This document shows positions 16,174 through 52,167 of a stretch of 64,000 nt of DNA, piece by piece. The translations under genes were made by a program, and so were the position numbers. This DNA comes from Patescibacteria group bacterium (GTDB taxonomy: Bacteria; Patescibacteriota; UBA1384; XYA2-FULL-43-10; 1-14-0-10-43-13). The number at the start of each line of letters is the position of its first letter. The stretch's first letter is position 1. The notes under the pieces are model-generated. The model ran no database searches, was not told the origin of the DNA, and saw only the letters and a program-made list of their open reading frames with translations. The DNA lies in the NCBI GenBank assembly GCA_041674765.1, contig JBAYVE010000001.1, forward strand, positions 2,321 to 66,320. The letters run 5' to 3'.

Positions 16174-19100
16174 TTAGAACCCTACATGCGTCCAGACGGT
16201 CGTTTGGGTGTTGGCCCAGAGACCCTCTTTTGTTTTTGCTTTGCCCTCGCTATCAAAGCCAAGGCAGATGCCGTTGACAGCCAAAGCGTCTTTGCCAAGG
16301 CGTTGCTGGCAGATATTAGTCGAAACCATGTCATTCCAAAAAGTGACATCCTCTGAACGTCCAGTCATTATTTGTGTTGGGATAAGGGCTTCGCCGGTCG
16401 AATCGTTGTATTTACTGTCGTACTGAATAGAAAGGACGTCTCCGATCAATCTCCTGGCCTTATATTGAGCCGCTAGAATTTTCTTTTTTTCCAATGTCTT
16501 ATTCAGGGCTGATGAATGGGCGGCATTTCCGCCGAAAACGCCTATGCCGGAGATATCATTTTTTTGCATTGCAGAGGAAGGAATTGTAAAATTATTCACC
16601 GGTGTATCAAGAAGGGATAAAGGATCACCCGACAAATTTATGTTTTGGTTTCCAGAAGATCTGCCGCTAAGTTTATCCCAGAAACTAGAAGGAGGAGAAG
16701 AGTCCTTATAAGGGTAATATCCATCAACAGAGCACCAATACTCAACACGGTAAGTAGAGAAGAGATTGATGGCCAGAAAAGTCAGGAGTGTTATAGCGAT
16801 TGTTACCGGATCGACCATCGGAATTATCCAGGCGCCAGCGATAGCATGGGCTGCAATAGCGATACTGGCATATGCAGCGGTGCTTACTAACACCATCAGA
16901 CTACCTGGCACAAGATTTAAGTCCTCTTCCCAGCCCGAGATCGTTTCGCCAAGGTACTTTTCAACTAGATAATCAATCGTCATTTGAACAATAATCTGGA
17001 AGGCTGCAGCTCGAAGGGCTTTGGCATTATCAACTTTGATTTGCTCGACCGTTTCTGCGGCCTGGGCATTCTCCAGATTTGTTTGGAATCTTTGTACCTG
17101 GCCGGCCATGCCGGCGTTTACTGCCTCGTCATATAGCCGTTGGGCTTCTTGGACATTTTCGGTTGCAGTTTGAAGAGACTTTTGGGCGCTTCGAAGAGCC
17201 TGATTCGCTTTATAAGCGTCGATACCTGACTTCGCAAGTCTAAAGGATGTGCCTTCTGAGACACCGAGAGCCCTGTCAGCCCAATTAAATACTCTTCCGA
17301 CGCCCCAATTCACAATAGCCTGTCCGAGCGTTGGAACAGATGCTCCGCCGATAGTTTGATTGGCATTGCCCTGAATTCCTTCGAAGCTGAAGGAATTAAT
17401 ACCCCAGTCATTGGTTGAAAGTCCGACTAAAATTCCCTTGGCCATATCGGGAGTGATTGAGAAGCGAAAAATCTTCTCAAAGCCTTTAGCCATATAATTC
17501 GCAAAATATTGAAAAGACTGACCGTTGTTTACCTTGATTAGAGTCTCTAAGGCAGCCATATTGTTGCCTTGGATCATACTGCTAGCATAAACCAGAATAT
17601 CGCCCCACTCCTGAACATTCTTTACGGCGTCAAATTTGACGCCAAATAAGTGACCGTTTGTCACTCCTCGTTTGACATATTTGACGATAGCAGCAGTCTT
17701 GATTTCTCCATTGCCTTTTATAATTGCCTCTGCAAAGCCAGGATAAATATTTGTGTCCAGCTTCCAAAGTCCGATATCCAGAGCTCGGTATTCGAGAATC
17801 TCAATAGCACGGTTTTTGGCTGATCCATTGACATCTTGGACGTCTGCGGCGTTAGCTCTTGAAGGATCGTTTAGAGTGTTAAGTTTCCTCTCCAAAGGTT
17901 CTACTCTAATCGCCTGTTCATCTTGAATACACGAATTAATCTTATGTTGTTGCTCATACCTATCCGTACACGAGTTTTTAATCGAAGTATTTTCCCTATT
18001 TATCTGAGTTTGGAGATCGACTTTTGCCTGTTCATACTTTTCAGGGGTGTAGTCATACTGTCTTTCGACGGTGGCTTGCACACTTTCAACCGGTGATTTG
18101 AAAGCATCTACCTGACCGAGACAATCAATGCCTTTTGCAAAATCATTGCCGCCCGTCTTTGCGCATTCCGGAGCCCCCGGAGCGTACTCAGTTACCTCGG
18201 GATTGGCCGAGTTACCAGTAGCATCCTTGTAGGCTGCTAGTTTTTGAGCGCTTTTGGTAGATAGACCATAAATTGAGTTACGGATCATCTCATATGTGAT
18301 AAAAAACTCTGCCGGGATAGGAGTCTTTGTATCAACGCCATCGATTTTTTTGATTGCATAATTGGAGGTCAGTGCCATAGTAATAACGCTGATCGCTCTG
18401 TTGCTATCTCGGCCAAAGAGATCTTTCAAATCAGCGGTTGGGACATCAACGCCGATAAAAACACCGCCGATTGTTAAATTGGCAATCTTTTTATGCAGCT
18501 GTTCTATCGCTGCGTTTTGGAGCCAAAGCCGGGCCCGATCTGCCAAGACTTCATTTTTTGGAATTGTACCTTTATCGATATCCTGTTTTTGGGCAATCGA
18601 TCTTCTGGCCGTGATTTTGCATTCTGTCTCTTGTGCATTTAGAGCGTTGATTTGCAGTACGGCATCATCTCTGTCTGCTACGGCATTTTCATATTCATCT
18701 GAACCGACAACGGTCTTGGATATCTCTTTTTCTGCTCCCGACTTGATCAGCGCCAGTCTAAGTTGCTCATCTGCATAAGTGGCCCGACACTGATCATCGG
18801 CACTTTTTACATCAGTTGGCAGAAGGGCTTTATAAATTCCGCTAAAAGATGCTTGGCTGGTGCTATTTAGATCGGCCTGTTCATCAAGCTTGGCTGCTAT
18901 GACTCCCATCATCGTTGAATAGGCGGTATCAGGATTCTCGATTATACTTAAAATTGTGGTTTGCGGAATGCTCAATTTATCTGCAAGTTTATATTTGAAT
19001 AAATTAGTCAAACCGTCGAAGAGCAAGGCATAATTCTTATAATCAGGGTTACTACTCTCTCCAGATATAGAGAATGTTGGCGCAGTAAAGATTGCCCTGA

Positions 19101-22100
19101 GGGCAGTCACAGTTTTCTTCGCGCCTTCTTCCTGTTCCACACTTAGATCAAAAATGCCGCACAGACGATCAACAGATACATCAAGGATGCGGTTTTTTAT
19201 AAGGGAATTTCCGGCTTCTTCTATATATTCCGAAGGTGTTATCTTGCCGTAGAGAAGCTGATAGGTGCCGCCGGCCTTTAAAGAAAAAGTATTGTCAAGC
19301 TGAGCGATAAAGCGGATATACGCAGAGACTCGTGCATTCTGAGTAATATCATTGCTATCGGTAGTGCTGGGTAAAATAGTCAAAGCATCAGTTATATTTA
19401 TTGTTAGCTCATTCTGAAGCTCAGAAAGCGCATCAAAAGCATCATTACTAAGCATTGGCGTGCCCTGAACATATTTCTGCAAGCGAAGAAGTTGATAAGA
19501 GATATCCGAATTCTTAATAAGAGCATACTGTTCGCCCATAATACGGGACATCTTCCCCTCATCCTTCAAAGCCCAGAGAAAAGGAATTTTGAAAGCAGCG
19601 GCAAAGTTTATCGGCTTTACATTTCTAATGATTTCTTCAATATCGTCTCCATGAAAGGTTCCGCGAGGAATGCCAAGTGTTTCTTCAATCTTGGCCTGGC
19701 CGATATTTGAGATAAAGCTATCAATAGTTTTTCCTTTAATCGGGACATAATCTAGTCCAAAGAGCCCGCCCAAGAAAGTGCCGCCGGCTTGGGCAAATGC
19801 ACAATCTCTGGCATCGGTTGTGAGAGCAGTATAAATTAGATAAGTTGTACCAGTTTTTAGTTCCATCTCCTGATCAAGATAACCGGAAGCAATCCGACCG
19901 GCAGATGAATAGTCGCCATTCAAAAGATCAAACATATCCCCGGCATCAAAAAGGTCCGGATCGACGGAAAAGGGGAGATTATCAAACAATTTGTAAGTAA
20001 AGATTTTGGCGGCTTCTTTCTCTCCGACCAATTGTTTATAGTTGGCTACTGAATTTTTAAGATGATTCCTCACAAAAAGTTTTTCTAGCAAGGTAATCGG
20101 AAGGCCAGTACTCCTATAAATCTCATTAATGACGATATTACTTGTATTTGCCTCTCCAAACGCGTATTGCATAGAGGGATCGTTTACAAAATTCTCTAAA
20201 TTGGAGTGAAAAATCTCGAAATCCCAACCAGGGAAAGCTCTACTTAGGCCATAAGAAATTTCATATAGAATACTAATGATTTGCTGCTCTTTGTGATTAT
20301 TTGCATAGTTTTGAGCTTCCTCTCTGCTTTCAAAACAGTGCCGGCCTTCCTTATCGTAATAACAGAACGAATTGTTCTGTAAGGTCGTCTCATTTACGGA
20401 GAATCCTTCTTTTTGGGTGTAGATAACTTTACAGCTGCTCTCTTTGTTATCATCGGCATACGGATTTGCATTGATGTAATCTACGAGCCTATCACTACCG
20501 TACTCATCTGCTTCGCTGGGCAGAAGTTCTCCGTTGAGCATCTGGATATACTTCTCCAAGGCGTTTTTGCTGATTTTTAATATTGAAGCCTCAATCAAAT
20601 TCTTCTGTTTGTTGGTTAGACTGGCCGATGTCAAGGTTTTCTCTTCAGTAAATAGAGATTTTGTGGAACCTTTTAGAACATCAAAATTTTTATCTGCCTT
20701 CTCAGCAGTTGAGTTGGCTTCGCTCCATATTCCAGAATTTCCACTCTTCAAGGCCTCATAACTGCCCATCGGCAAGCCCATACGGAACAACAAATCATTT
20801 TCTGGTGTTCTGATATTATCGCCAAATTTTCTATTGGAGATATTCTCAACGATATCATCCAGATCGTTTTCCTTCGTTAGCAAGCCGTTCTGGTCTTTGA
20901 GCTTTGATTGAAAGTCTTGTTTCCAACGAGTTGTTGCCGCATCGACAAATTTTTTAAATTGGTCGGGGTTATCCTTCTTTAATTTACGGAAATAATCAAC
21001 CGTTAATCTCTCTCTGGTTTGGGATAGCCGCTTAAAGAATTCATCAAATTTACTGAGTTTTACCGTGTCGCCGAAATACGCTGATAATATTTCAGGCCCT
21101 GCCCATCTCATCAAAGCTTCAAAATCTTTCTTGAAGTCAGGCGGGGTCTTGGATATGGAGGCGCCCTGAAAGTAGAAGAAAGGCATATTATAATGTTCCT
21201 CGATTCTTGCTTGACCGATCGCTTGCATAAAGGCATCCTGACCGGTGACTCCTCTTTTTTCAAAGTTCTCGACAAAATAAATTAGGGAGTTGCTGGGAAG
21301 ACCCAATTTAGCCTCGGCGGTGTTGGCTCCGAGGGTGACAAACAGATCAGACACACCAATTTTTCCGGCGATGAAGTTAAAAATAATCTTTGCTATTTGA
21401 AAGGTAGTCAATTTTTTACTTTTTCGCCGTCCATCGCCAGAATCAGTGTTTTGGGTGGAATCGAGGCCTGGCTTTATCTGATTTATGGTTAATAAATCAG
21501 AGGGAATTTCTTTGCCTGCCATGATCTCGCTGATAGCTCTGATCAGTTCGTTTACGTCAGTGATTAGAATGTTTACTCGGGCAGCCTTCTCATCATATTC
21601 ACTGGTTTTCTTCATCTCATACACCTGCTTCAGCGCCAGAAGATTTTTCTGGAGGTCGGCGAGATCGGTAGCAATTACACTAGCCGAATTAATAATCCCC
21701 TGAAGCTTTGAGAGATCGCTATCGTTCTTTAAAAGATCCCTCAAAGAACTCATAGTTTTTTCAACCTTGTCAGAAATCTCACGTATCTCAACATCATCAG
21801 ATTTTAGAGCTTCCCATTCGCTGTTGATCTTACTTTGTAGCTCATAGACCTTAAGAACTCTAGCTAAGTAGAAGCCAAGTTCCTTGTTGTTGGTTGAGAG
21901 TTCCGGATCTAGATTAAGGAGATCAATTTTGGTTTTATCTTCATCATCCAATAATTTGTTGGCCAGTCCGTAATAAAGCAATTTTGAGCCGATTCGTTCA
22001 AATACATTCTCAGCATTTGCGTTAGCATATCCCATCATAAGAAAAAGATCGAAGTCTTCCAAACCGGCTGTTTTAGCTTTTGTTTTTGGGATATTAAAAT

Positions 22101-24717
22101 CTTGAGAATAATCTTTACTTTGAGCCTCGCTTGAATCCTGAGTTTTATATTGGATCCGGAAATTTACGGTCTGACTGAGCGCACAAATACTTTGTTGTCG
22201 CTTCTTTTCAATCTCGTCACTGATCTCAATATTTCCGGCATCTGTGTGAATCGTAATATTAATCTGTTCGGCCGGACGTTGGCAGGCATCTTTGGCAGTA
22301 ACTTTGGCTAAATTACCTCGAAGCCACTCTCTAAAGGTTAGATATCCCAAGTCGCCAGGATTGTATTCCACCTCCTGGCCATTTTCGATGGCAAATATCT
22401 TATCAATAGTTTCACCTTCGTTTAGGAACTTTGTACTGTCTAGATGAGTGGAATCATCTCCGAGCCGCCGTGCCAGCGTGTAGATGCCGATAGTTTGGTA
22501 GGCACTTCTACTGCCGGAAATAGCTTGTTCCCAAGTGCCGTCCGGTAGTTGATAGGCGCTATTCGTCATGGCGAAGTATTTCAAGCCGAAACTCGTGTCG
22601 TGCTTACGGGATTCCCCGACTATGTTGGCATATTCGGCCGCAGTGAAGGGCTTTGCGTGATCATTTGGATTGTGACCGTTCGTAAAAAGCGAAGTTGTCC
22701 CTGGCTGAATATGCAGGAGGTTATCAATATAGCCTGCATTGTTGCGGAAGATCTGAGTGCGGACAGAATTTAAGCTATCGTCTAAATCATTGAAAGACGT
22801 TGCATCCGTAGGCCAACTTTCCTTTGGCAAGTTTAACTTTGCTTCGATAATCTTGGCGCCGACGAGTGTCGCAAACATCGTACCGTCATTTAGATTATCA
22901 AGATCGCCGGCACGAAGATTCATCTCTGCTTCAACTTTGCGCTGTCCAATATTTTCCAGCAAACCGAAAAGATTATTCTTGACTTCCTTTCCGGCCTGGA
23001 AGTCATTATCAAGGGAACCAAAGGGAAGACCAAGCCTTTTTTCGATTGCAGATCTACCAATGACGTATTTGAGCGCTGTCAGGTCTGTAATATCGGTATC
23101 TGTCAGTATTTCTCTTGGAAGACCTAAATAGTCAGCCAGATAAACGCCTCCCAAATTTTTCAGAGTGTCCTCGACATCGCTACCATGAATAGAGTTTGTA
23201 GGCGAGTTAATGATATTAGCAAAGAGTGATTGGCCTAGAAGAGAAACAATATCATCCAAGCCGGCGCTTGAGAGATCGCCATCATAACTGCTAAATTGAG
23301 GATTCATGGCAGACAATAGATCGAGAGCGCTCTGAGATGCCATTTGTCTCATCGTCTCCATCAAATCCGTGCCAGTGTTTGTATTTGATCTCCGATAGCC
23401 ATCAGTTGTCTGCCATGCCAATTTGATCGGTTGGGCAGCCTGAGGTTCCTTGAAATCATGGCCGATCCTTCTTTTCTTTAGGACGGTGCAACGGACGTCG
23501 TCAATCTCGGTGATATCAACTGCCTGACCATTGTAGTGTGCAGAGATATTTCTGCTATTCTTCAGTGCCGGATCACTGTCCTCGAGAATCTCAGCGTTTT
23601 TCAAATCTTCATAATAAGCGTCATATTCCTGACCGTCTTTATCCTCGATTGTAAAACTATTGGCTTTTGCCCCGCATTCCGCGGCACTTTCATCTAAAGA
23701 GCAGACAACGTTTGAGTTGGTAATAGAACCGTTCAATTGTTCTCGTATCACATCTGACTCATTTGAATCGGTGTCGTTCTGGAGGATTCTGTTGGCCTTA
23801 ATTCTCCAATGACCTCCTCCTCCCTGGTCTTTTGGTGTGATTAAGTAAATCAGCGTCTTCAAAACTCTGATATCGATAGTCGGGGCCGAGATAGCATCAG
23901 AAATCAAATCGGCGACATATTCCTTATTGTTGTCACTTAATAGCTTGCCTTGGAGAGTATTGCTATCGATACCGGTGATGCACGAGAGAGTATTAAAATT
24001 GGCAAGATTTGTTTTGCCGGTTGCTTTAATTCGAGCCGCCTCCTCTTCCCAAAGGCCTTTCAACTTTTTATCACCGAAGTTTTTTTCCGCGAGAGAAACC
24101 AGATCCCTGAATTGCTGATGGTTGGAGATAGTCTCCGTCGCAGTAATACCGGTACCGTTTTGAAGCCAGGTTAGATATTGGAATTCATCTAGATATCTAG
24201 GACTCTCCTTGGTCTTTTCGGTATTTACCTGGTCATAAATCTTGTTCCGATTATCTGCAGGCAAAATTGCAAAAAGATTGAACAAGTCGTTATTGAAATC
24301 AGGCATAATATCGCTCATGCATTTGAGCTTTTTGAGAGATTCGATATCTTTCTTAGCTAAAACTAATCTTGCGTCAGAGGACGGTCCGAAAATGTCGTCC
24401 ACGGATAAAAGACTATCAGGATTGGTATAATAACTAATCAATTCCGCGAGCTGCTGATAGGCCTCTGACTGACCGAATTTTTTACAAACTTCTGAGTTAT
24501 TAGTTTCGGGCAGAGTGAACGTGAAATTTTGCTGAATGGTTATTGAATTAAGTCTGATCAGATCCGGTCTGTTCTGGGCAATATAGTCAGAAGAATCCAA
24601 ACTATCGATTTCGGTTGAAGGGATATCTGCAGCCTGTGCCCAGCTTAATAGAAAAGGATTTAGTATAATGACGACAGAGATAACTGCAAATAATAACTTT
24701 TGAAAGAATATCTTCAT
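16174..24717 (-). CDS. Giant (2847 aa) secreted surface protein, membrane-anchored by C-terminal TM helices; last gene of the T4SS-like operon; function unknown
   Basis: Single uninterrupted ORF. Signal peptide MKIFFQKLLFAVISVVIILNPFLLSWAQA. Recurrent motif (I/L)E(A/E)KLGLP at least 8 times. SAHYNGQAVDI motif (M15-peptidase-like SxHxxGxAxD). Coiled-coil segment. Hydrophobic helices SLMVLVSTAAYASIAIAAHAIAGAWIIPMV...ITLLTFLAINLF about 215 aa from the C-terminus. ATG overlaps the upstream gene stop (ATGA). Confidence 0.7.
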   Translation of the reverse strand: MKIFFQKLLFAVISVVIILNPFLLSWAQAADIPSTEIDSLDSSDYIAQNRPDLIRLNSITIQQNFTFTLPETNNSEVCKKFGQSEAYQQLAELISYYTNPDSLLSVDDIFGPSSDARLVLAKKDIESLKKLKCMSDIMPDFNNDLFNLFAILPADNRNKIYDQVNTEKTKESPRYLDEFQYLTWLQNGTGITATETISNHQQFRDLVSLAEKNFGDKKLKGLWEEEAARIKATGKTNLANFNTLSCITGIDSNTLQGKLLSDNNKEYVADLISDAISAPTIDIRVLKTLIYLITPKDQGGGGHWRIKANRILQNDTDSNESDVIREQLNGSITNSNVVCSLDESAAECGAKANSFTIEDKDGQEYDAYYEDLKNAEILEDSDPALKNSRNISAHYNGQAVDITEIDDVRCTVLKKRRIGHDFKEPQAAQPIKLAWQTTDGYRRSNTNTGTDLMETMRQMASQSALDLLSAMNPQFSSYDGDLSSAGLDDIVSLLGQSLFANIINSPTNSIHGSDVEDTLKNLGGVYLADYLGLPREILTDTDITDLTALKYVIGRSAIEKRLGLPFGSLDNDFQAGKEVKNNLFGLLENIGQRKVEAEMNLRAGDLDNLNDGTMFATLVGAKIIEAKLNLPKESWPTDATSFNDLDDSLNSVRTQIFRNNAGYIDNLLHIQPGTTSLFTNGHNPNDHAKPFTAAEYANIVGESRKHDTSFGLKYFAMTNSAYQLPDGTWEQAISGSRSAYQTIGIYTLARRLGDDSTHLDSTKFLNEGETIDKIFAIENGQEVEYNPGDLGYLTFREWLRGNLAKVTAKDACQRPAEQINITIHTDAGNIEISDEIEKKRQQSICALSQTVNFRIQYKTQDSSEAQSKDYSQDFNIPKTKAKTAGLEDFDLFLMMGYANANAENVFERIGSKLLYYGLANKLLDDEDKTKIDLLNLDPELSTNNKELGFYLARVLKVYELQSKINSEWEALKSDDVEIREISDKVEKTMSSLRDLLKNDSDLSKLQGIINSASVIATDLADLQKNLLALKQVYEMKKTSEYDEKAARVNILITDVNELIRAISEIMAGKEIPSDLLTINQIKPGLDSTQNTDSGDGRRKSKKLTTFQIAKIIFNFIAGKIGVSDLFVTLGANTAEAKLGLPSNSLIYFVENFEKRGVTGQDAFMQAIGQARIEEHYNMPFFYFQGASISKTPPDFKKDFEALMRWAGPEILSAYFGDTVKLSKFDEFFKRLSQTRERLTVDYFRKLKKDNPDQFKKFVDAATTRWKQDFQSKLKDQNGLLTKENDLDDIVENISNRKFGDNIRTPENDLLFRMGLPMGSYEALKSGNSGIWSEANSTAEKADKNFDVLKGSTKSLFTEEKTLTSASLTNKQKNLIEASILKISKNALEKYIQMLNGELLPSEADEYGSDRLVDYINANPYADDNKESSCKVIYTQKEGFSVNETTLQNNSFCYYDKEGRHCFESREEAQNYANNHKEQQIISILYEISYGLSRAFPGWDFEIFHSNLENFVNDPSMQYAFGEANTSNIVINEIYRSTGLPITLLEKLFVRNHLKNSVANYKQLVGEKEAAKIFTYKLFDNLPFSVDPDLFDAGDMFDLLNGDYSSAGRIASGYLDQEMELKTGTTYLIYTALTTDARDCAFAQAGGTFLGGLFGLDYVPIKGKTIDSFISNIGQAKIEETLGIPRGTFHGDDIEEIIRNVKPINFAAAFKIPFLWALKDEGKMSRIMGEQYALIKNSDISYQLLRLQKYVQGTPMLSNDAFDALSELQNELTINITDALTILPSTTDSNDITQNARVSAYIRFIAQLDNTFSLKAGGTYQLLYGKITPSEYIEEAGNSLIKNRILDVSVDRLCGIFDLSVEQEEGAKKTVTALRAIFTAPTFSISGESSNPDYKNYALLFDGLTNLFKYKLADKLSIPQTTILSIIENPDTAYSTMMGVIAAKLDEQADLNSTSQASFSGIYKALLPTDVKSADDQCRATYADEQLRLALIKSGAEKEISKTVVGSDEYENAVADRDDAVLQINALNAQETECKITARRSIAQKQDIDKGTIPKNEVLADRARLWLQNAAIEQLHKKIANLTIGGVFIGVDVPTADLKDLFGRDSNRAISVITMALTSNYAIKKIDGVDTKTPIPAEFFITYEMIRNSIYGLSTKSAQKLAAYKDATGNSANPEVTEYAPGAPECAKTGGNDFAKGIDCLGQVDAFKSPVESVQATVERQYDYTPEKYEQAKVDLQTQINRENTSIKNSCTDRYEQQHKINSCIQDEQAIRVEPLERKLNTLNDPSRANAADVQDVNGSAKNRAIEILEYRALDIGLWKLDTNIYPGFAEAIIKGNGEIKTAAIVKYVKRGVTNGHLFGVKFDAVKNVQEWGDILVYASSMIQGNNMAALETLIKVNNGQSFQYFANYMAKGFEKIFRFSITPDMAKGILVGLSTNDWGINSFSFEGIQGNANQTIGGASVPTLGQAIVNWGVGRVFNWADRALGVSEGTSFRLAKSGIDAYKANQALRSAQKSLQTATENVQEAQRLYDEAVNAGMAGQVQRFQTNLENAQAAETVEQIKVDNAKALRAAAFQIIVQMTIDYLVEKYLGETISGWEEDLNLVPGSLMVLVSTAAYASIAIAAHAIAGAWIIPMVDPVTIAITLLTFLAINLFSTYRVEYWCSVDGYYPYKDSSPPSSFWDKLSGRSSGNQNINLSGDPLSLLDTPVNNFTIPSSAMQKNDISGIGVFGGNAAHSSALNKTLEKKKILAAQYKARRLIGDVLSIQYDSKYNDSTGEALIPTQIMTGRSEDVTFWNDMVSTNICQQRLGKDALAVNGICLGFDSEGKAKTKEGLWANTQTTVWTHVGF

Positions 24718-26120
24718 TTTAGCGATAAAGCATACTTAATACGGGACCACAAATAATCGCCCCAATCCTTCGATTCGTTTTGATTATGGTCGATTTTATC
24801 TACTTCTGTGGTTGTTAGACAGACATTGCAGTAGCTCATTTCAATATGAAGCTGCGAATAATTGCCAATTTTTACTGTTTTTCCGATCGGCTTATTTAAG
24901 TCAGTAATCTTTTGTCCTTTTACTACAGAGGGATCAAAATTTGCGTACAAGAGGAGATAGTCACCGTTTTGGATAGCTATCTTCTTATGGCCCGTCCCAT
25001 CATCAGAAACATCAATGACCTCGCCGATCATACCGGGGTAGACGTTGTTACCTTCGGTGGTATACAAATCGACGCCGTCACATTTATTTTGGCCGAAGTA
25101 AATATAAGTTCCGTGACCCAGATCATCGCTCGGTGTAGTCGGTCGGAGTGGTGTTCCGGTGTGAAGTTCACTGTTTGTGCCGATGATTTTGGCCTTTTCA
25201 ATCGGATAATGTCCATTGATAGCAGGAATGCTATTATCTATTTTTTGTAGAACATTTTTTATAGCATCAAAAATTTCCTGACCTAACTCGACATTACCGG
25301 CAGCCGCTTGATTGACCTTTGTGAGAGCGCTATCGATCTCATTCTTGATATTTTGATCTGTCGTCTCCTCCTTTAGCTGAGTTAGTAAGAGCTGTAATTT
25401 TGTCGTTAGCTCTTTCTTTGATTGCTTTTGGATTTCAGGGTCTTTGACTGCGAGGAGTGTAGCCTCAATAACTGATTTATTATCAATCGGCATGGCGGGA
25501 GTAGTGGGAGTTTGGCCGCCGGCCCCACTCTTATAAAATCTAAGGGAGAAAGCCAGCATGCCGATGGCCATAGCCAGTATTACGACGACTAAAATGATAC
25601 TCCAGCTTCCGCCGAGGAGTCCGGCTATCCAGGCCCAGATTCTAACAATTGCAGCTACAAATCTTTTTGTTACTTTTTCTTCGAATTTTTGTTTTAAATC
25701 ATCAGCTATTCTTCTTGCTTTTCCGGCTCTAGCGTTTTGTTGATTAGTGTCTTCTCTAGAAGCATTTGGTTCTTGTCCTTGTTCAGGACCATTTTGGATG
25801 TTAGCCGCTCCCGTCTTTCGGGCGGTTCCCCCCTGATTGGCATATGGATCGGTTTTATCATCGCCAGGAAGAATCTGATCTGGAGAGATCTCGGGGTTGT
25901 CGGGTACCCTTTGCGGTAAAGGGGGCGGCTGTGATTCTTGTTCCCAAATCGGATCGTCAATCTCGCGGTTTAGAAAAGGATCGTCTTGAGCGCCAGGAAC
26001 TCCTTTGCCCTGATTGCGCAGACGTAAATATGAATCTCTAGCGCCCTCCGACTGAGACTTCATGTAGTCTTGTCGGTATTTGCGCATCTGTTTTTTGATA
26101 GATTGTAGTCTTTTATCCAA
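24714..26120 (-). CDS. Membrane-anchored protein with C-terminal M23/LytM-like peptidase domain (possibly degenerate)
   Basis: Basic cytoplasmic N-terminus; TM (WIAGLLGGSWSIILVVVILAMAIGML); C-terminal ...GTNSELHTGTP...VVKGQKITDLNKPIGKTVKIGNYSQLHIEM resembles the M23 core (…VKKGQ.V..GQ.IG..G.TG.STGPHLHFE). Confidence 0.45.
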   Translation of the reverse strand: MDKRLQSIKKQMRKYRQDYMKSQSEGARDSYLRLRNQGKGVPGAQDDPFLNREIDDPIWEQESQPPPLPQRVPDNPEISPDQILPGDDKTDPYANQGGTARKTGAANIQNGPEQGQEPNASREDTNQQNARAGKARRIADDLKQKFEEKVTKRFVAAIVRIWAWIAGLLGGSWSIILVVVILAMAIGMLAFSLRFYKSGAGGQTPTTPAMPIDNKSVIEATLLAVKDPEIQKQSKKELTTKLQLLLTQLKEETTDQNIKNEIDSALTKVNQAAAGNVELGQEIFDAIKNVLQKIDNSIPAINGHYPIEKAKIIGTNSELHTGTPLRPTTPSDDLGHGTYIYFGQNKCDGVDLYTTEGNNVYPGMIGEVIDVSDDGTGHKKIAIQNGDYLLLYANFDPSVVKGQKITDLNKPIGKTVKIGNYSQLHIEMSYCNVCLTTTEVDKIDHNQNESKDWGDYLWSRIKYALSLK

Positions 26121-26180
26121 GACCCCTCCACTTGATTGGGCTAGTATTATTTATAGGTTATCTGGTTTCAACCTCACGCT

Positions 26181-27446
26181 TTATTCAACTTTGATCGCAA
26201 ATATTCCATCGCTTGTTTGATATAAAATCATCTTTTCATCATCAGAAATAAAGAGTGTATTTATAAATATTTTGCCGAAATCTCTAATAATAAACCCGGA
26301 ATTTTTTTTATTATCGGTGTCAAATTTGAAGATTGATTCGTTCTTTGTTTTCGAATCATAAGTAGCGATGACTACGTTTTTTGAATCCTTCTCCCATGCG
26401 GTTTTACTTATTTCTGCAAAAATGCCCAGTGTCCGTTTATCAGAGCCATCGATATTCATGATAGACAGAGCCGAAAAAACGGGGCTTTCGGGATCGCTCT
26501 GATATGTTCCATAAAGTATTTTGTTGCCGTTGGGAGAGAAAGAGGCATCCAATTGACCACCATTATCGGTCAAAGTTTTGAAAGTACGGGAGTAGGTGTT
26601 GAAAAGATATATTTTGTTCTTCGAACGATCGCTATTTCGCGGAATTATAAGCAGCCATTGCGAATCAGGAGACCACTTCAGAATCGGATTCTCGATGCCC
26701 CTCTCGGAAAAATTAGCAATTCTAGTTACCTCGGTATTGGCAATATTGGAAAAAACCAGCGATTTCTCTCCATTCGTTGCATAATAGTAGGCTATTTTGG
26801 AGTTATCAGGAGACCAAGCAACAGCTCCGACATCCTTGCCCCAAGGAAGTTCTGTTTGATTGACAAAGTCGTATTTTTTAAAGTCAAATATTGTCATCTC
26901 GCCGGCTTTTCTTAAAAGGGCCAATTCCTTTGTCGGCGACCAGATTATCTCTTTCACGCCGGTTAATCTAGCATCGGTAATCGGCGTATTCTTGATGATT
27001 TCAATAGTCCCATCCTCCGTCAGACCGACCTTTAGTTTGTAGAGAGTTTTCCCACCGTTCCCAAGGTAGTAGCCGTCGTTGAAATCACTTCCCTTGACGA
27101 TATATTCTGCGCCGTTGCTGATCTCGACCGGTTTCGGAGTAGTTTTCAACTCAAACAAAATCTGTTTCATGAACCCGCGTTTCAGAGAAAGAGTGGTATT
27201 CAATCCGACATAGCCATCGGCCTCGATTTTAACATTATGATTCTCCGGCGAAAGATTGAGGCGGAAAGTGCCGCTGCTGATCGATTGGACAGCCTTATCA
27301 TCAATTGTTAGCTCAGCTTCATAGGGAATGACTTTCAGCGTTACAAATGATCTCGAGAAAACCCATATTAGGGCAATTACGGCTAATATTGTTGCTAAAA
27401 TAGCGATATAAATGGAACGGCTTAATTTTTTTAATTCTACATTCAT
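26181..27446 (-). CDS. N-terminally anchored TolB-like beta-propeller protein (PD40/WD40-like repeats)
   Basis: N-terminal TM then repeated ...WSPD...KI(A/L)Y... units (IIWSPTKE, VAWSPDNSKIAYYY, LKWSPDSQWLLI, ASFSPNGNKILYG). Confidence 0.6.
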   Translation of the reverse strand: MNVELKKLSRSIYIAILATILAVIALIWVFSRSFVTLKVIPYEAELTIDDKAVQSISSGTFRLNLSPENHNVKIEADGYVGLNTTLSLKRGFMKQILFELKTTPKPVEISNGAEYIVKGSDFNDGYYLGNGGKTLYKLKVGLTEDGTIEIIKNTPITDARLTGVKEIIWSPTKELALLRKAGEMTIFDFKKYDFVNQTELPWGKDVGAVAWSPDNSKIAYYYATNGEKSLVFSNIANTEVTRIANFSERGIENPILKWSPDSQWLLIIPRNSDRSKNKIYLFNTYSRTFKTLTDNGGQLDASFSPNGNKILYGTYQSDPESPVFSALSIMNIDGSDKRTLGIFAEISKTAWEKDSKNVVIATYDSKTKNESIFKFDTDNKKNSGFIIRDFGKIFINTLFISDDEKMILYQTSDGIFAIKVE

Positions 27447-27479
27447 TTTTACCTTTACTTATCTTTCTTTAGTTGAGAG

Positions 27480-28691
27480 CTACCAGCGTCCTATGCCGCA
27501 ATTAGCACACTGTAAGTCTTTTAACGTGCGATGATGTTGAATCCTTATCTCATCATCACCGACATTTCCTTCGATTGTGACTAAATCAACTGGAGTGACA
27601 ACAAAGCCTACATGGTAACCGCTGTCGCTTGCCCTACTTGGTACCATGAAGACGTCTCCTGCCTGTATTTCTGATAAGCTTTTCGGCTTAAACCAAGTGT
27701 GATTTTTTATGAAATAATCGCGTAAATTCAGAGTTCTACCGATTTTTGCAACCTCAGGGTCATTGTATACTTGAGCCAAAATCCATGAGACAAAGTATGT
27801 GCACCATTGAGCACAGCCTTTGCCTGGAACATATTTAACGCAGTTTGCGCCTCCGGTCTTATAACCTTTTTTCCCGGCAGCCAATTCGTCTGTAGCCAAC
27901 TTAACTATCTCATTTCCTGTCTGATTGCCTACCGTTAGTTGGCCGTTGATTGTGCATCCTTCAGCTAACTCTGTAAAAGTTTTTCCGACGTCTTGCAGAT
28001 AATCAAGTGCAATCTGTGCCCCACGGATTGCAGTAATACCTTGTTTGGACCAAAGGGGATATATCTTTGACCCATAATTACTCTGATCTTGATATTCTTT
28101 AATCTTGTCTGCGGACATAGGATAGCCATCTGCAACCCAAAGCTTTGCCACATTTGCCCCGCGATTATAAGCCAAAGCTACTGCTTGAATAGCATGAACA
28201 TCGGAAAAATTTGTAATACCAAGACTCTCTGCCTTATTCTTAATTATTTTAGCTGCCGGCCCAACTGATTTTGCAAAGTCTTTAGCGTCTTCTTTGGAAA
28301 GTCCGTATGCTTCTCTGCTGGCGCTATCCAGTTGGAATGGTCCGCAACCGTTTACTACGCAGGCAAAGTCTGATCCCATTGGTTTCCATTGCCTACCATT
28401 TTCCTTCCAGTAAATTGCTGCAAGCATCGCCGGATGAATGCCGGCTTCTTTTGCAGCCTGTGTCATCAGGGTCTGCTCCGATATGCCCACTTTTGCCCAA
28501 GTGTTACAGGAGACATCGCCGGATGAATAATTACTAGCTGCAGGATCGCCCTGTGCCTTCATTATATTCATGAATCCAGCACCGCCGACAGCGGCAGCTA
28601 CGATGGTGCCGCCAAGAATAAGTATGCTTGAAAAAATCAGCGGTCCGACCAGAACTGCGGCTTTATATTTTTTTAAAAATATCAATTTCAT
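27480..28691 (-). CDS. Bifunctional peptidoglycan hydrolase: lytic transglycosylase (SLT)-like domain plus C-terminal CHAP domain; VirB1-equivalent of Gram-positive T4SS (TraG/PrgK-like architecture)
   Basis: N-terminal TM; LAAIYWKENGRQWKPMGSDFACVVNGCGPFQL (SLT-like catalytic Glu region); C-terminal CAQWCTYFVSWILAQV...GDVFMV...GYHVGFVV...TIEGNVGDDEI (CHAP Cys/His). Confidence 0.6.
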   Translation of the reverse strand: MKLIFLKKYKAAVLVGPLIFSSILILGGTIVAAAVGGAGFMNIMKAQGDPAASNYSSGDVSCNTWAKVGISEQTLMTQAAKEAGIHPAMLAAIYWKENGRQWKPMGSDFACVVNGCGPFQLDSASREAYGLSKEDAKDFAKSVGPAAKIIKNKAESLGITNFSDVHAIQAVALAYNRGANVAKLWVADGYPMSADKIKEYQDQSNYGSKIYPLWSKQGITAIRGAQIALDYLQDVGKTFTELAEGCTINGQLTVGNQTGNEIVKLATDELAAGKKGYKTGGANCVKYVPGKGCAQWCTYFVSWILAQVYNDPEVAKIGRTLNLRDYFIKNHTWFKPKSLSEIQAGDVFMVPSRASDSGYHVGFVVTPVDLVTIEGNVGDDEIRIQHHRTLKDLQCANCGIGRW

Positions 28692-28695
28692 TCAT

Positions 28696-30516
28696 TTATT
28701 GTTGTCCTAGTATTTGTTTGGGGTCGGTAGTGATAATTTGATCTTCCGTGTACGAAGCTACTGCTTTGAAAGCAACGTGATTTAATCCTGCAAAGAAAAG
28801 ACCCTCTCCGACGTCTGACTCCAAAAGTAAATACTTTTCACCTTCAGTCAGGTTAAAAGTCTCAGCCACAAGGTCAACAGAAGCTGTTGATTGCTTCATC
28901 AATACCTGCATCGAGGAGTTGGCGACCACGGCCTTTCCATAACGGCTGGACAGAAAATCTTCTACATCCTGACTTATTATCGTCAATCCCAGATAGTATT
29001 TTCTGGCTCTTTTGGCCAAACCGTGAAGGAATTTCGCCGAGTCCTCGTATTGCATCATCCACCAAGCTTCATCGACGATCATCAGGCGCTTTTTCATCTC
29101 CATCCGAACTTTGGTCCAGATATAATCAAGAACAGTGTAAATGGCGATTGGCCGAAGCTGTTCATCCAGATCCCGGACAGAGAAAACAACAAATCCGGGT
29201 TTCAAGGTAAAATTCGTTCGTTGATTGTAAAGATTGGCAAAAGTGCCCTCGGTAAATTTCGACAGCCTGGCACGCAGAGACTCCGTGCCCTGTAGATTTG
29301 AGAGAATGTTGTAAAAATCTTGGAGTAGGGGAGGCTCGTTCTTCTGACTCTCAGGGTCAAAGGTAATATCCTTTAGGGCATATGTTTCAAAGAGCGCTTT
29401 GTCCACCACAGCATCTTCTTCCGGCGAAAGTCCGCCAACCATCAGATTTATCAACCCATGCAAAGAGGAGATGTTTGACCGCAACACATCTTCGCCCGAT
29501 TCTTTATCATTGGTCGGTAGATCAAAAGGGTTGATTCTTTTATCAGAATTCAAGGAAATATTTAGATAGCTACCATTGACGGCGTCACTCAGCGTCTTGT
29601 ATTCGTTTTCAGGATCTATCACGATGACGTCAGCTCCCAGCATCAGATAACGGATTGCTTCCAATTTGACGAAATAAGATTTACCTGAGCCTGATTTGGC
29701 GAACACAACGGAATTGGCATTCTCCAAATGAAAACGGTCAAAGATGATCAGCGAATTGTTGTGCCGGTTGATACCGTATAGGACGCCTTCATCCTGAGTC
29801 AATTCTGAGGAGGTAAAGGGGAAAGTCGACGAGAGAGAACCGGTATCCAAATTCCGCAAAACATTTACCTTGTCGGTGAATAAAGGCAGTGTCGCTTGAA
29901 AACCTTGCTCCATCTGGAAAACTGTTTCCTTCGTGTAGATAAGAAGACCTCCCAGGGTGGATTCCAGCTGATCACAGAGCGTCCGTAATTCCTCTTGAGA
30001 CCTGGCATATAAAGTAAAGTAGAGGCCGAATTGGAAGAGCCGAACCTCGCCTCTTTGAAGAACGTCTCGGAGGGATTCTACATCGCCCAGAGCAGTCTCC
30101 ATCTCAGGATCCCGAGGCTTACCCTTTTCATGATCGATTGACATTGTAGATTCGAGTTTACCAACCTGGGTTTTGAGCTGATACATCACCTCCTTGGATT
30201 CCAAAGGGTGAATGTACATCCCAATGTCCATGTTCATGTCATAGTTGATTACAGGAGAAAGCCAGTTCGTCTCCAAATATCGAGGGTAAGTAAAAACAAA
30301 GAGAGTTTTGATATAAAAGGATCCCACTTGAATATAGTTTGGGGTAACCACATAAGAAGCAGGCGCAATAATATCCCGGATCGATGCCACTCCCTGGCTT
30401 GGCACGTCCTTCTTTTCCTTGGTATCGCGAACATAAGCAACTTCGCGCTCGGAAATATTATTCTGGGCTAGTTGACGTGCATCTACATTTTTAGTTGTTT
30501 GGTCTAAATCAGCCAT
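28696..30516 (-). CDS. virB4: VirB4/TrbE/CagE-family T4SS ATPase (606 aa from ATG 30516; the longer ORF-track version to 30732 is an out-of-frame artefact)
   Basis: Walker A FAKSGSGKSYF; Walker B RLMIVDEAWWMM; VirB4-type middle region YVVTPNYIQVGSFYIKTLFVFTYPRYLETNWLSPVI; GGAG SD 14 nt upstream of ATG 30516; 8-nt overlap (ATGGCTGA) with the upstream gene. Confidence 0.85.
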   Translation of the reverse strand: MADLDQTTKNVDARQLAQNNISEREVAYVRDTKEKKDVPSQGVASIRDIIAPASYVVTPNYIQVGSFYIKTLFVFTYPRYLETNWLSPVINYDMNMDIGMYIHPLESKEVMYQLKTQVGKLESTMSIDHEKGKPRDPEMETALGDVESLRDVLQRGEVRLFQFGLYFTLYARSQEELRTLCDQLESTLGGLLIYTKETVFQMEQGFQATLPLFTDKVNVLRNLDTGSLSSTFPFTSSELTQDEGVLYGINRHNNSLIIFDRFHLENANSVVFAKSGSGKSYFVKLEAIRYLMLGADVIVIDPENEYKTLSDAVNGSYLNISLNSDKRINPFDLPTNDKESGEDVLRSNISSLHGLINLMVGGLSPEEDAVVDKALFETYALKDITFDPESQKNEPPLLQDFYNILSNLQGTESLRARLSKFTEGTFANLYNQRTNFTLKPGFVVFSVRDLDEQLRPIAIYTVLDYIWTKVRMEMKKRLMIVDEAWWMMQYEDSAKFLHGLAKRARKYYLGLTIISQDVEDFLSSRYGKAVVANSSMQVLMKQSTASVDLVAETFNLTEGEKYLLLESDVGEGLFFAGLNHVAFKAVASYTEDQIITTDPKQILGQQ

Positions 30517-31518: not shown

Positions 31519-31932
31519 TTATTGTTTAATCAGAACTTTTCCCGTGTCATACTTCTTCGCTATATTGCTTATTTCATCATGACTGACATTCTTGTGCTGA
31601 ACCGTCGTTCCTTTCTTCTCGACATGATATATTTCTATCCTCAGATCGGAATCATCACCTTGGTGCCAGACCCTTTTTTTCGGTTGGGATACATAGGCAA
31701 TAGCGGCTTTAAAGAAATCCAAGAAAGGGCGCTCATTGATCTTGATGAAATCCAAGCAGATGACAAATACCGCAATCGGTGTGATCAAAATATAGGAAAA
31801 CGGCTTGGGGATAGCAGAATAAATGGCATATGAACAGCCAAAGCCAATTACGGCATAGATAAACTGAACCATTGTTAATGGCCCGAGGACTCGATCTTTC
31901 ATATCGATATTTTGCGGAACTTTATACCTCAA
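31519..31932 (-). CDS. Small two-TM membrane protein, VirB3/PrgI-like (position and topology)
   Basis: 137 aa; MKDRVLGPLTMVQFIYAVIGFGCSYAIYSAIPKPFSYILITPIAVFVICLDFI hairpin; lies immediately upstream of the VirB4-N gene, as VirB3 does in T4SS loci. Confidence 0.4.
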   Translation of the reverse strand: MRYKVPQNIDMKDRVLGPLTMVQFIYAVIGFGCSYAIYSAIPKPFSYILITPIAVFVICLDFIKINERPFLDFFKAAIAYVSQPKKRVWHQGDDSDLRIEIYHVEKKGTTVQHKNVSHDEISNIAKKYDTGKVLIKQ

Positions 31933-32022: not shown

Positions 32023-32943
32023 TCAAGGATGGATGATAGGAGAAGGTTTTGCTGCCTGTGCTGCAAACTGGTTTTTCCGAATTAGAGGCTTGCCGGCTCT
32101 TTCTAATTCACTTGAAGTGATTAGCGTTGAATAAAAATAAAGCATGGCTGATCGTTCACGAATATAATTTTCAGCTTCTTCATAATTATCGGTTTTAAGG
32201 CCATGCGCTGTAAGATAAATTTTAGTGTCTGCAATTTCCTCGGCGTTGACGATATAAATCAATGCTTCCTCGCAATTGACCTCTTCTTTGAGCTTTTCTA
32301 TATCGAGTTCGAGTCTGTTTGTGAGGCGGTAGAAATCGACAACTTTGGGATAGATTTCTTTGAGCTGGGGGATAGTAATGGGATATTCAATATAATTATG
32401 CATCACAAGCAAAATTTCTTTTGCTAAAGCGCTGATTTTCTTTAAGGTCTCAGGGTTTTCTTCCCCCGATCCTTTATAAAGTCGGGCGAAGTTATCGACT
32501 TGAGGCTTAACAGCGAGATAGCAAAGGTTTTCATAGCCATTCTTAATCTGTCTGCATCGGACAACAATTTCCTGCCAAGACTTGACCTGCTGACTTATGA
32601 CATATTTCTCATTTAGCCGAAATGTGCCCTGAAATAGCTTGGCAAGAGTAATATTTATATCATTCAGACTCCCATCTTTCATTCCAGCTATCGCAAAAAT
32701 AATCCGTTTGCGATCATCATCGATTGCTATTGATCCGCATGTCTCAGCCAGGAGACATGCCAGTATTATTTTGTGGCGTGCAATTTCTCGAAGTAGGCAA
32801 TTTTCAAAAAAGAGATACCAAAAATTTATATAATCAGGTCTCGGCAATGCCGTTACAAATGTTTTTACTTCCTCAAAACTATGAGTTTCCAGGTAGAAGG
32901 CGTAGTTTTTTGCGTCAGTGATATCTTTTTCGGTTTCGATCAT
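32023..32943 (-). CDS. Hypothetical cytoplasmic protein (306 aa) within the T4SS-like operon
   Basis: Long ORF with no TM segments or recognisable motifs; tight operon spacing. Confidence 0.5.
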   Translation of the reverse strand: MIETEKDITDAKNYAFYLETHSFEEVKTFVTALPRPDYINFWYLFFENCLLREIARHKIILACLLAETCGSIAIDDDRKRIIFAIAGMKDGSLNDINITLAKLFQGTFRLNEKYVISQQVKSWQEIVVRCRQIKNGYENLCYLAVKPQVDNFARLYKGSGEENPETLKKISALAKEILLVMHNYIEYPITIPQLKEIYPKVVDFYRLTNRLELDIEKLKEEVNCEEALIYIVNAEEIADTKIYLTAHGLKTDNYEEAENYIRERSAMLYFYSTLITSSELERAGKPLIRKNQFAAQAAKPSPIIHP

Positions 32944-39272: not shown

Positions 39273-39366
39273 AAGGATATTTTAACAAACAAAGACAAAA
39301 ATACCAAGAAAAGGTGCAGAAGAGATACGCTTGTTGTTAGTGCCAGGTATCCGTTATAATCAATGC

Positions 39367-39921: not shown

Positions 39922-39982
39922 CAGGGGAGGAATTGGAAAGAAACACAATCTTTTAGAATTTAAGACTTACTACATATAACTT

Positions 39983-41032: not shown

Positions 41033-41035
41033 GGC

Positions 41036-41064: not shown

Positions 41065-41110
41065 CTCTTAATTTACTAAAAAGTAAATACTAATTAGATA
41101 GGCAGGCCAT

Positions 41111-52166: not shown

Positions 52167-52167
52167 A

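Follow-up and report, generated by a model that had tools for sequence, protein, structure and literature searches.

This work concerns three adjacent genes within the operon encoding a type IV secretion system (T4SS) in a Patescibacteria group bacterium (assembly GCA_041674765.1, contig JBAYVE010000001.1), which are considered as the candidate wall-facing part of that system. The 64-kb stretch of DNA that was analysed is referred to as the window, and its 293 open reading frames (ORFs) formed the search space for the custom hidden Markov models (HMMs) described below. All comparisons with related loci (L001 and following) refer to the 80 best VirB4-related loci of a species-level genome collection, whereby essentially all of these derive from Patescibacteria metagenome-assembled genomes (Berkelbacteria, Doudnabacteria, Peribacteria and many labelled Saccharibacteria) or from mis-binned contigs.

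The three genes and their domains

The interval 24714-28691 was found to consist of exactly three minus-strand ORFs whose products comprise 403, 421 and 468 residues, and the motifs WKENG, GPFQL, CAQWCTYF and GYHVGFVV, to which a previous sequence-only reading of this DNA had pointed, are all present in the translations. The features assigned to the three genes are given below, with residue numbers referring to the respective protein.

27480..28691, minus strand: membrane-anchored, VirB1-like, predicted bifunctional peptidoglycan hydrolase, 403 residues (public annotation of the identical protein: 'CHAP domain-containing protein')
28569..28661, minus strand: N-terminal hydrophobic anchor of the hydrolase, about residues 11-41, with KKYK before it (Kyte-Doolittle hydropathy; a long low-confidence helix of residues 9-46 in the predicted model)
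27957..28523, minus strand: GH23 / SLT lysozyme-like domain, about residues 57-245, with Glu97 (WKENG), GPFQ (residues 117-120) and AYNRG (residues 174-178)
27483..27926, minus strand: CHAP / NlpC-P60 cysteine peptidase-amidase domain, residues 256-403, with Cys297 (QWCTYF), His360 (GYHVGF) and Glu374/Asn376 (IEGN)
26181..27446, minus strand: membrane-anchored PEGA and PD40 beta-propeller protein, 421 residues
27132..27335, minus strand: PEGA-like beta-sandwich, about residues 38-105, following a transmembrane (TM) anchor at residues 12-32 (TM segment by hydropathy)
26184..27119, minus strand: PD40-type beta-propeller, about residues 110-421, with about 6-7 blades as counted by eye from WSPD-like motifs
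24714..26120, minus strand: bitopic membrane protein, 468 residues, consisting of a polar N-terminal region, a TM segment, a helical region and a degenerate LytM C-terminus
25530..25661, minus strand: hydrophobic segment of the 468-residue protein, residues 154-197, forming either a single long TM helix or two short ones (hydropathy; helix-break-helix in the low-confidence model)
24816..25103, minus strand: degenerate LytM / M23-like domain, about residues 340-435, with CDGVD for HxxxD, YANF (Asn for the middle His) and QLH for HxH

The SLT and CHAP domains of the 403-residue protein

As judged from its sequence, the 403-residue protein is a predicted SLT plus CHAP two-domain hydrolase of the monoderm VirB1 type which retains all catalytic residues, and the architecture proposed for it by the sequence-only reading hence stands. 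HMMs built exclusively from the related loci matched the 403-residue ORF alone in the window, with E values of 5e-62 for SLT and 1e-14 for CHAP, and the Pfam gathering scores of both families are passed by other members of the family, namely by the orthologues in L001, L004 and L021 (29, 31 and 90 bits) for SLT and by the relatives in L012, L021 and L008 (45.5, 47.2 and 33 bits) for CHAP. When 1.84 billion representatives were scanned in full with HMMER, 108 relatives were obtained, 21 of them at E<=1e-10, whereby many are about 400 residues long and match over their full length. Apart from the proteins of the locus themselves, word-indexed homologue searches yielded no more than one relative for each and a single stray M23 protein, and a PDB search with the single 403-residue sequence gave nothing relevant.

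Within an alignment of 46 sequences, the SLT residues Glu97 and Gly117 are each kept in 42 and Tyr175 in 37 members, while the CHAP residues Trp296, Cys297, His360 and Asn376 are kept in 40, 36, 41 and 45 members, respectively. Alignment A3 of the SLT domain shows Glu97 and the motif residues G, Q, Y and G to be invariant, and the same holds true for Cys297 and His360 in alignments A2 and A4 of the CHAP domain, for which a third polar residue of the triad is also available (Glu374 and Asn376 in IEGN). Comparison of the N-terminal-domain profile with the PDB identified Slt, MltE, MltC, Slt70, goose-type lysozymes and the type III secretion system enzyme EtgA (Slt/MltE/goose lysozyme at 7e-9), whereby the alignment to Slt places Glu97 on the catalytic Glu (QES), GPFQ on GLMQ and AYNRG on YNAGPG. 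For the C-terminal domain, the profile gave marginal matches (about 1e-3) to NlpC/P60 and CHAP structures, with a Tn916-like conjugative-element hydrolase in first place.

The AlphaFold model computed from the 46-sequence alignment reached a mean predicted local distance difference test (pLDDT) value of 85.9, with both domains above 90, and possesses a lysozyme-like alpha-helical fold followed by a papain-like alpha+beta fold. The best Foldseek match of this model is 4hpe, which spans both domains (360 columns, E 6e-6), followed by MltE, MltF and MltC. The N-terminal anchor predicts that the enzyme domains lie outside the cell. No more than two activities are expected of the operon, glycan cleavage and that of a cysteine peptidase or amidase; the GH23 reaction would be that of a lytic transglycosylase or of a muramidase. 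Two cysteines flank the SLT domain, Cys246 being present in 45 and Cys62 in 32 of the 46 family members, and a Cys62-Cys246 disulfide may staple the ends of the domain together. A tblastn search against plasmids with the hydrolase gave zero matches.

The membrane-anchored propeller

The 421-residue protein was described by the sequence-only reading as an anchored PD40/TolB-like propeller, of which the N-terminal anchor and the PD40 assignment were borne out (Pfam PD40 24.2 bits, cutoff 20.9); the protein is, however, not TolB itself. The TolB model TIGR02800 matches the propeller part only (E 1e-14), with 54.3 bits as compared to an equivalog cutoff of 343, and TolB propellers in the PDB are found at E 3e-11 with the single sequence and at E 5e-24 with the profile of the 41-member family. 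TolB identity was thus rejected on the basis of (i) domain architecture, (ii) score and (iii) genomic context, which consists of virB4 and wall hydrolases and not of tolQRA-pal. The TolB N-terminal domain (TolB_N) was found in none of the 41 family members, and Pfam PEGA passes in 11 of them (best E 1.7e-10). On the window protein, Pfam PEGA and CarboxypepD_reg match weakly, and custom HMMs from the relatives recognise the 421-residue ORF alone, at E 2e-26 for PEGA and at E 2e-96 for the propeller.

The linkage of the propeller to virB4 was quantified in loci having at least 9 kb of flanking sequence, whereby homologues were sought within 9 kb of virB4. Of 43 loci, 33 have a propeller homologue downstream of virB4 (32 on the same strand), as compared to 1 of 41 with one upstream (Fisher p 2e-13), and this linkage is still seen where VirB4 identity falls to 52% and propeller identity to 14%. 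As the compared loci are phylogenetically related, these figures document conserved synteny, not 33 independent events. The sequence-only reading had considered the propeller unexpected at this place; being present in 33 of 43 related loci, it is no oddity of this operon, and its designation as cell-wall-directed was an assumption, not a result. Some of the sampled lineages lack the propeller, i.e., Peribacteria-labelled loci, CPR2 and loci with an unsplit VirB4. Two propeller paralogues downstream of virB4 were identified in L014, L015, L021, L025, L028, L051, L054 and L055, and in several of these one propeller carries the PEGA domain and the other does not.

The search for a previously described counterpart gave negative results throughout. 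No propeller, PD40 or TolB-like component is mentioned in the main text of PMC12102498 or PMC10633639, and no description of a propeller as T4SS component was found in the 2025 T4SS nomenclature review or by full-text literature searches. A tblastn search of the PLSDB plasmids with the propeller returned six weak generic PD40 matches, of which zero are annotated as T4SS genes, and a plasmid-borne counterpart of either the hydrolase or the propeller was hence not found by this approach. In the Pfam and NCBIfam scans, neither the propeller nor the 468-residue protein matched a T4SS-specific profile.

The 468-residue protein and its degenerate LytM domain

The gene for the 468-residue protein starts with TTG behind a GGAGG Shine-Dalgarno sequence, and its stop codon overlaps the ATG of the following gene, which encodes a giant protein (ATGA). 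Given the strong Shine-Dalgarno sequence at the TTG, the public 449-residue call (P0003) probably misses the first 19 residues. The N-terminal region of about 150 residues is rich in Q, D, P and R and is probably cytoplasmic.

The C-terminus had been proposed to resemble an M23/LytM domain without a clear HxxxD motif, and this proposal is supported by sequence comparison. The five positional orthologues in L008, L027, L026, L007 and L010 score above the M23 threshold (67, 62, 51, 44 and 43 bits), and an HMM built from these five relatives only has the 468-residue ORF as its sole match in the window (E 2.3e-5). The joint family profile (A1) finds ShyA, LytM and lysostaphin at 1e-16, DipM at 1.5e-13, SpoIIQ at 1.7e-5 and EnvC at 3.6e-4; a PDB search with the single 468-residue sequence gave nothing relevant. 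The key M23 columns were fixed by aligning the family profile to ShyA (HNGTD, YLHLS, PHLHYE). All five key residues, i.e., those of HxGxD, the middle His and HxH, are kept in L008, L027 and L007, while the first His is lost in L010 and L026, the latter also having HLQ instead of HxH. The corresponding motifs read CDGVD/YANF/QLH in the window, CDAVD/YANF/QLH in L001 and GDGVD/YAFV/LVH in L002, which means that these three have C or G, N or F, and Q or L at three of the five key positions. As a consequence, both catalytic His residues (the equivalents of LytM H260 and H291) are gone in the window protein, being replaced by Asn and Gln, and one zinc ligand is also lost. The Cys which replaces this ligand is not conserved, L002 having Gly instead, and this speaks against a re-tooled metal site. 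Nevertheless, the M23-like domain is 52-54% identical within the clade formed by the window, L001 and L002, with long invariant runs, and this conservation in spite of the lost catalytic residues indicates a selected non-catalytic role. From its sequence, the domain is thus most likely an inactive, degenerate LytM domain.

Two observations suggest that the 468-residue protein works together with the giant protein: (i) the ATGA overlap of the two genes and (ii) a fusion in L012 (7158-13121, plus strand), in which the giant protein has the TM and helical part of the 468-residue family ('M23mid') joined to its N-terminus.

The giant protein and the M15-like motif

16174..24717, minus strand: giant secreted protein, 2847 residues, bearing a signal peptide as well as TM segments in its C-terminal part; its gene is translationally coupled to that of the 468-residue protein

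Signal cleavage of the giant protein is predicted after AQA, and two TM segments locate to residues 2602-2656. Its homologues follow the gene for the TM-LytM protein in at least 18 loci. The M15-like motif that the sequence-only reading had noted was recovered as SAHYNGQAVD at residue 392, which fits SxHxxGxAxD, and the surrounding domain (residues about 250-500) is conserved in at least 20 loci with the consensus NISAHxxGQAVDISE and an invariant W-Q. The assignment to M15 itself did not hold up in the same way. The giant protein has zero Pfam matches at E<=1, the profile of its conserved domain has no PDB match at E<=10 and nothing relevant was found in PHROGs; in the per-member Pfam scan, VanY was matched weakly (E 0.059) by 2 of 12 giant relatives. 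Moreover, W-Q is invariant in the 12 relatives at the position where the last His ligand of M15B is expected, for which we take W-H to be the M15B form. The M15/LAS assignment of the giant protein therefore has no significant support from these searches, although the structure-based Hedgehog/DD-peptidase annotation of SEML1_0007 from Southlakia epibionticum, given in Wang 2023 Table S2, makes an M15-like, possibly degenerate, fold in the giant protein possible.

The hydrolase slot in related loci

In the closer relatives, the position between virB4 and the propeller gene carries a wall-hydrolase domain of the SLT, 3D, CHAP, NlpC/P60, Amidase_2, Amidase_3 or M15_4 type, while in five more distant loci (e.g., Doudnabacteria) the protein at this position is without any Pfam match. 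The combination SLT plus CHAP occurs in L012 and L021, SLT plus Amidase_3 plus NlpC/P60 in L001, L002 and L038, SLT plus Amidase_2 in L004 and 3D-like plus CHAP in L008, L025 and L028. Further loci have Amidase_3 (L007), Peptidase_M15_4 (L003, L010), NlpC/P60 (L022) or Amidase_2 (L026) at this position. On the level of domain content, the slot is thus extensively shuffled among close relatives, which fits a diversification against variable targets.

The secretion operon and its surroundings

The remaining genes of the operon lie upstream of the hydrolase gene on the same strand.

28696..30516, minus strand: VirB4 ATPase of the CD1110 family (NCBIfam conju_CD1110, E 6e-108), probable start ATG 30516, 606 residues
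30509..31495, minus strand: TrsD-like protein, 328 residues, a homologue of the VirB4 N-terminal domain encoded as a gene of its own
31519..31932, minus strand: PrgI / VirB3-like protein (Pfam PrgI, E 2e-13)
32023-32943, minus strand: 306-residue protein without family match, kept only in the closest loci L001, L002 and L003
32959..35733, minus strand: VirB6-like polytopic protein, 924 residues, with a long C-terminal extension (weak TrbL/VirB6 match, multiple TM segments)
35724-37718, minus strand: 664-residue protein without family match, with a signal-like N-terminus, two later TM segments and one relative (L038)

The gene order is that of the 664-residue protein, the VirB6-like protein, the 306-residue protein, PrgI/VirB3, the TrsD-like protein, VirB4, the hydrolase, the propeller, the 468-residue protein and the giant protein. 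Spacings between the operon genes amount to 4 to 60 nt, whereby the hydrolase gene begins 4 nt past the virB4 stop. About 3 kb past the giant gene dnaA, dnaN and recF were identified, and the operon is chromosomal. The VirB6-like gene is conserved in 34 related loci. With VirB4, TrsD, VirB3/PrgI and VirB6 occurring together on the chromosome near dnaA, the locus shows the hallmarks of the Patescibacteria-clade T4SS and is a chromosomal, origin-proximal Patescibacteria T4SS as described in PMC12102498, the report in which both the origin-proximal placement and TrsD were documented for Patescibacteria (Quinonero-Coronel et al. 2025). A VirB8-like protein was not identified within the 64-kb window, and promoter and terminator scans of the operon remained at chance level.

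VirB4 is split into two genes, i.e., the TrsD-like gene and the gene of the ATPase, which are separate in 74 related loci. The possibility of a frameshifted VirB4 was considered and rejected, as the split is kept in these 74 loci and fits the known TrsD arrangement. L027, L035 and L041 encode VirB4 as one fused gene. The 678-residue VirB4 ORF that was listed for the window overlaps the TrsD-like gene by 224 nt; its real start is likely ATG 30516, which has AGGAG upstream, leaves an 8-nt overlap with the TrsD stop and agrees with the public 606-residue call. Both the PrgI gene (31519-31932) and the gene of the 468-residue protein begin with TTG behind a strong GGAGG(GG) Shine-Dalgarno sequence.

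On the other side, the operon is flanked by genes for UppP/BacA, a PAP2 phosphatase, a Mur ligase and a FemAB-family peptidyltransferase (38478-43758), among which a XerC/D-type recombinase gene was identified at 39983-41032. From these flanking peptidoglycan genes, the cell probably builds a wall of its own with interpeptide bridges. Further away, a PilB-like T2SSE/MshEN ATPase of type IV pilus or type II secretion system assembly (E 3e-117) is encoded at 6677-8580 of the window, and the sole tRNA of the window, tRNA-Ser(CGA) at 8491-8580, adjoins its gene. A surface-glycan cluster at 47656-56290 (plus strand) encodes a UDP-glucose/GDP-mannose dehydrogenase, a NeuB-family synthase, an epimerase/dehydratase, a DegT aminotransferase and a thiamine pyrophosphate-dependent enzyme, and looks like a cluster for the biosynthesis of nonulosonic acid or of an unusual sugar.

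Proposed function and alternative explanations

The three genes are suggested to form the extracytoplasmic, wall-facing module of a monoderm (MPF-FATA-like) Patescibacteria T4SS, a reading to which a probability of about 0.7 is assigned. The suggested mechanism assumes that the 403-residue protein serves as the VirB1 equivalent, being tethered to the membrane by its N-terminal helix with the GH23 (Glu97) and CHAP (Cys297-His360) domains outside the cell. There, the enzyme would open a local gap in the peptidoglycan so that the giant surface protein, like the secretion apparatus, could span the wall, whereby the wall thus opened may be the cell's own, that of a host at the contact site, or both. 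The 468-residue protein would reside in the same membrane and, by analogy with PrgK-LytM, DipM, EnvC and SpoIIQ, may either regulate or target the hydrolase or serve as a peptidoglycan-binding scaffold. An activator role, as considered by the sequence-only reading, is one option only, since the degenerate LytM domain of PrgK down-regulates its SLT domain (PMC11323569). Finally, the 421-residue propeller may act as a non-enzymatic binding platform, i.e., as a subunit that provides structure or binds a ligand in that part of the machine which spans the wall. What the sequences show are the identities of the domains, the state of the catalytic residues, the anchors, the packing of the operon and the synteny; the functional roles, the direction of regulation and the assignment of the target wall to self or host are inferred.

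Several observations weigh against this assignment or parts of it. When the window proteins are scanned alone, Pfam does match the families that the sequence-only reading had named for these three proteins, with PD40 above its cutoff, but SLT (E 5.5e-3, 16.7 bits, gathering cutoff 21.3), CHAP (E 2.4e-4, 22 bits, cutoff 26) and Peptidase_M23 (residues 348-429, E 3.3e-5, 24.4 bits, cutoff 28.7) stay below their gathering cutoffs. The AlphaFold model of the ectodomain of the 468-residue protein, computed from a 2-sequence alignment, reached a pLDDT of 43.8 and provides no structural support for the M23 fold, and a profile of the three window-clade sequences found LECT2 only in the PDB, at a non-significant E value of 0.32. 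The topology of this protein is ambiguous, as its 44-residue hydrophobic stretch could form a hairpin, in which case the LytM-like domain would be cytoplasmic. Furthermore, HxxxD has kept its Asp and HxH its last His, and the LytM-like domain may have retained residual metal binding. With respect to the propeller, synteny among related loci falls short of proving physical membership in the T4SS, and no propeller is annotated among the S. epibionticum T4SS locus genes in the consulted part of Wang 2023 Table S2, so that, as far as this part of the table goes, a propeller is not obviously needed by every Patescibacteria T4SS.

As an alternative to VirB1-type assembly factors, the hydrolase and perhaps the propeller could be aimed at the wall of the host and thus represent interface weapons or entry tools of an epibiont. 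Target walls whose chemistry differs from host to host would be expected to produce the swapping of domains seen in the hydrolase slot, the family of the hydrolase evolves fast and has few members, with just 21 of the 1.84 billion representatives matching at E<=1e-10, and Patescibacteria T4SSs are without relaxases and have been proposed to function in the epibiotic lifestyle (PMC12102498; PMC10633639). However, all three proteins are anchored and possess no recognisable secretion or effector signal, so that diffusion into a host is not open to them, the same two-domain architecture remodels the self wall in monoderm conjugation systems (PMC11323569), and the nearby Mur ligase, FemAB and UppP genes imply that a self wall exists which has to be crossed. 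An orientation towards the host rather than the own wall is regarded as a serious but rather unlikely alternative. Still less probable is the assumption of general envelope or division genes, i.e., an autolysin, a TolB-like protein and an EnvC-like activator, that merely lie beside the T4SS in a compact, origin-near genome region. Division and turnover classically rely on factors such as degenerate LytM proteins and SLT/CHAP hydrolases, genes for wall synthesis (UppP, PAP2, Mur ligase, FemAB) abound in the region, and T4SS-specific profiles recognise neither the propeller nor the 468-residue protein. Against this stands the order virB4, hydrolase, propeller, TM protein and giant protein, which is kept on one strand at 52-82% VirB4 identity, together with the asymmetry of the propeller (33 of 43 downstream, 1 of 41 upstream), the overlap of the 468-residue gene with the giant gene, the 4 nt between virB4 and the hydrolase gene, and the occurrence of each domain once in the 64-kb window.

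The sequence-only reading had further reasoned that four different bonds of the peptidoglycan could be open to attack by the operon. This would require the M23-like domain to be active with a Cys-Asp-His metal site and, together with the M15-like domain of the giant protein, would bring the number of bonds attacked to three or four. For such a site, HxxxD would still offer its Asp and HxH its second His, with Cys standing in for the first His in the window and in L001; the SAHYNGQAVD motif fits the M15 pattern and VanY is faintly matched by 2 of 12 giant relatives; a bona fide Peptidase_M15_4 is present in the hydrolase slot of L003 and L010; and S. epibionticum SEML1_0007 possesses a Hedgehog/DD-peptidase domain according to Table S2. 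Yet both catalytic His residues are replaced (Asn, Gln), the Cys is Gly in L002, and the giant protein is without a Pfam, PDB or relevant PHROGs match and has W-Q in 12 relatives. The four-bond proposal is not supported, the M23-like domain having lost both catalytic His residues and one metal ligand, and an active M23 site is hardly credible.

Within the preferred reading of a wall-facing T4SS module, the propeller may be an undescribed, widely conserved structural subunit of the Patescibacteria T4SS machine, a proposal that is put forward tentatively and with the odds rather against it. Such a subunit could, e.g., replace the missing core of the VirB8/VirB9/VirB10 type as a platform that spans the wall or contacts the host, and it would work with the fast-shuffled wall hydrolases and with a dead-LytM adaptor that couples these to the giant surface protein.

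Significance

The locus bears on how monoderm and Patescibacteria T4SSs cross the wall and on what their extracellular part is made of. The Patescibacteria T4SS is essential for epibiotic growth in the sole species tested (PMC10633639) and comes without recognisable core or channel subunits. The locus described here shows a VirB1-type toolkit, such as that of PrgK, split over two membrane proteins, and a TolB-type propeller linked to virB4 across several Patescibacteria lineages. Parts of this picture have already been described, namely the setting in a T4SS, the VirB4/TrsD split, the location near the origin, the SLT plus CHAP VirB1-like hydrolase and the M23 association (PMC12102498), as well as a dead LytM domain in a monoderm T4SS (PMC11323569). 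No description was found of (i) the conserved PEGA-PD40 propeller, (ii) a degenerate LytM domain on a membrane protein of its own that is coupled to a giant protein and (iii) the extent to which domains are exchanged in the hydrolase slot. Should the propeller be a genuine subunit, structural and genetic studies of these machines would gain a tangible new candidate, and the hydrolase shuffling would offer an approach to host specificity; otherwise, the finding shrinks to an ordinary VirB1-like hydrolase set.

Comparison with known systems

The closest parallel is PrgK, the VirB1-like hydrolase of the monoderm MPF-FATA T4SS of plasmid pCF10 from Enterococcus faecalis, which possesses a metal-free, degenerate LytM domain next to an SLT and a CHAP domain. 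For PrgK it was reported that the SLT domain alone is active in vitro, that it functions as a muramidase and that the LytM and CHAP domains down-regulate it (PMC11323569). PrgK and the window share the three module types (degenerate LytM, SLT/GH23 and CHAP), the N-terminal anchor and the location in a T4SS operon. However, PrgK is one polypeptide, whereas in the window the SLT and CHAP domains and the dead LytM domain reside on two membrane proteins with the propeller gene between them. The window CHAP domain retains Cys and His and is thus predicted to be catalytic. The kinship of the window proteins with PrgK exists at the level of domains and folds only, as no similarity at the BLAST level to any plasmid was obtained. 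The combination of a lysozyme-like with an NlpC/P60-CHAP domain is likewise found in TraG of pIP501 and in Tn916 Orf14 / CTn1-Orf17, 4hpe being the structure of CTn1-Orf17 from C. difficile. The window hydrolase shares about 16% identity with the 4hpe family, but its gene is chromosomal and no relaxase context was recognised, whereby no search for relaxases or coupling proteins was made. The hydrolase also differs from its own orthologues in L001, L002 and L038 by being without Amidase_3.

EnvC and NlpD from E. coli, DipM from Caulobacter and SpoIIQ from Bacillus possess an M23 fold with lost metal-binding or catalytic residues, and the 468-residue protein resembles them in its profile similarity to M23 and in the loss of such residues. 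Such degenerate LytM factors regulate amidases or lytic transglycosylases, and SpoIIQ scaffolds a cell-to-cell channel. In contrast to these, the 468-residue protein is encoded in a T4SS operon and not in a divisome or sporulation locus, and its N-terminal architecture is a different one. In a similar manner, the 421-residue protein resembles TolB in its PD40-type beta-propeller, with significant sequence similarity, but carries a TM anchor and a PEGA domain in place of the TolB N-terminal domain and has virB4 as partner and not tolQRA-pal. While TolB belongs to the diderm Tol-Pal system, the 421-residue protein comes from a lineage that has been described as monoderm.

The operon as a whole compares with the Patescibacteria T4SS of PMC12102498 and with the essential one of S. 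epibionticum ML1 (PMC10633639), which have the same VirB4 clade, a TrsD-like gene, PrgI/VirB3, VirB6, a position near dnaA and hydrolases downstream of virB4. According to Wang 2023 Table S2, a large Hedgehog/DD-peptidase protein and a lysozyme-like/cysteine-proteinase protein are encoded beside virB4 in S. epibionticum, and both of these, the peptidase homologue and the lysozyme homologue, were reported to be essential for its epibiotic growth (PMC12102498). ML1 and the window also agree in that a very large protein adjoins the hydrolases, which in ML1 is SEML1_0007 with its DD-peptidase-like domain and in the window the giant protein.

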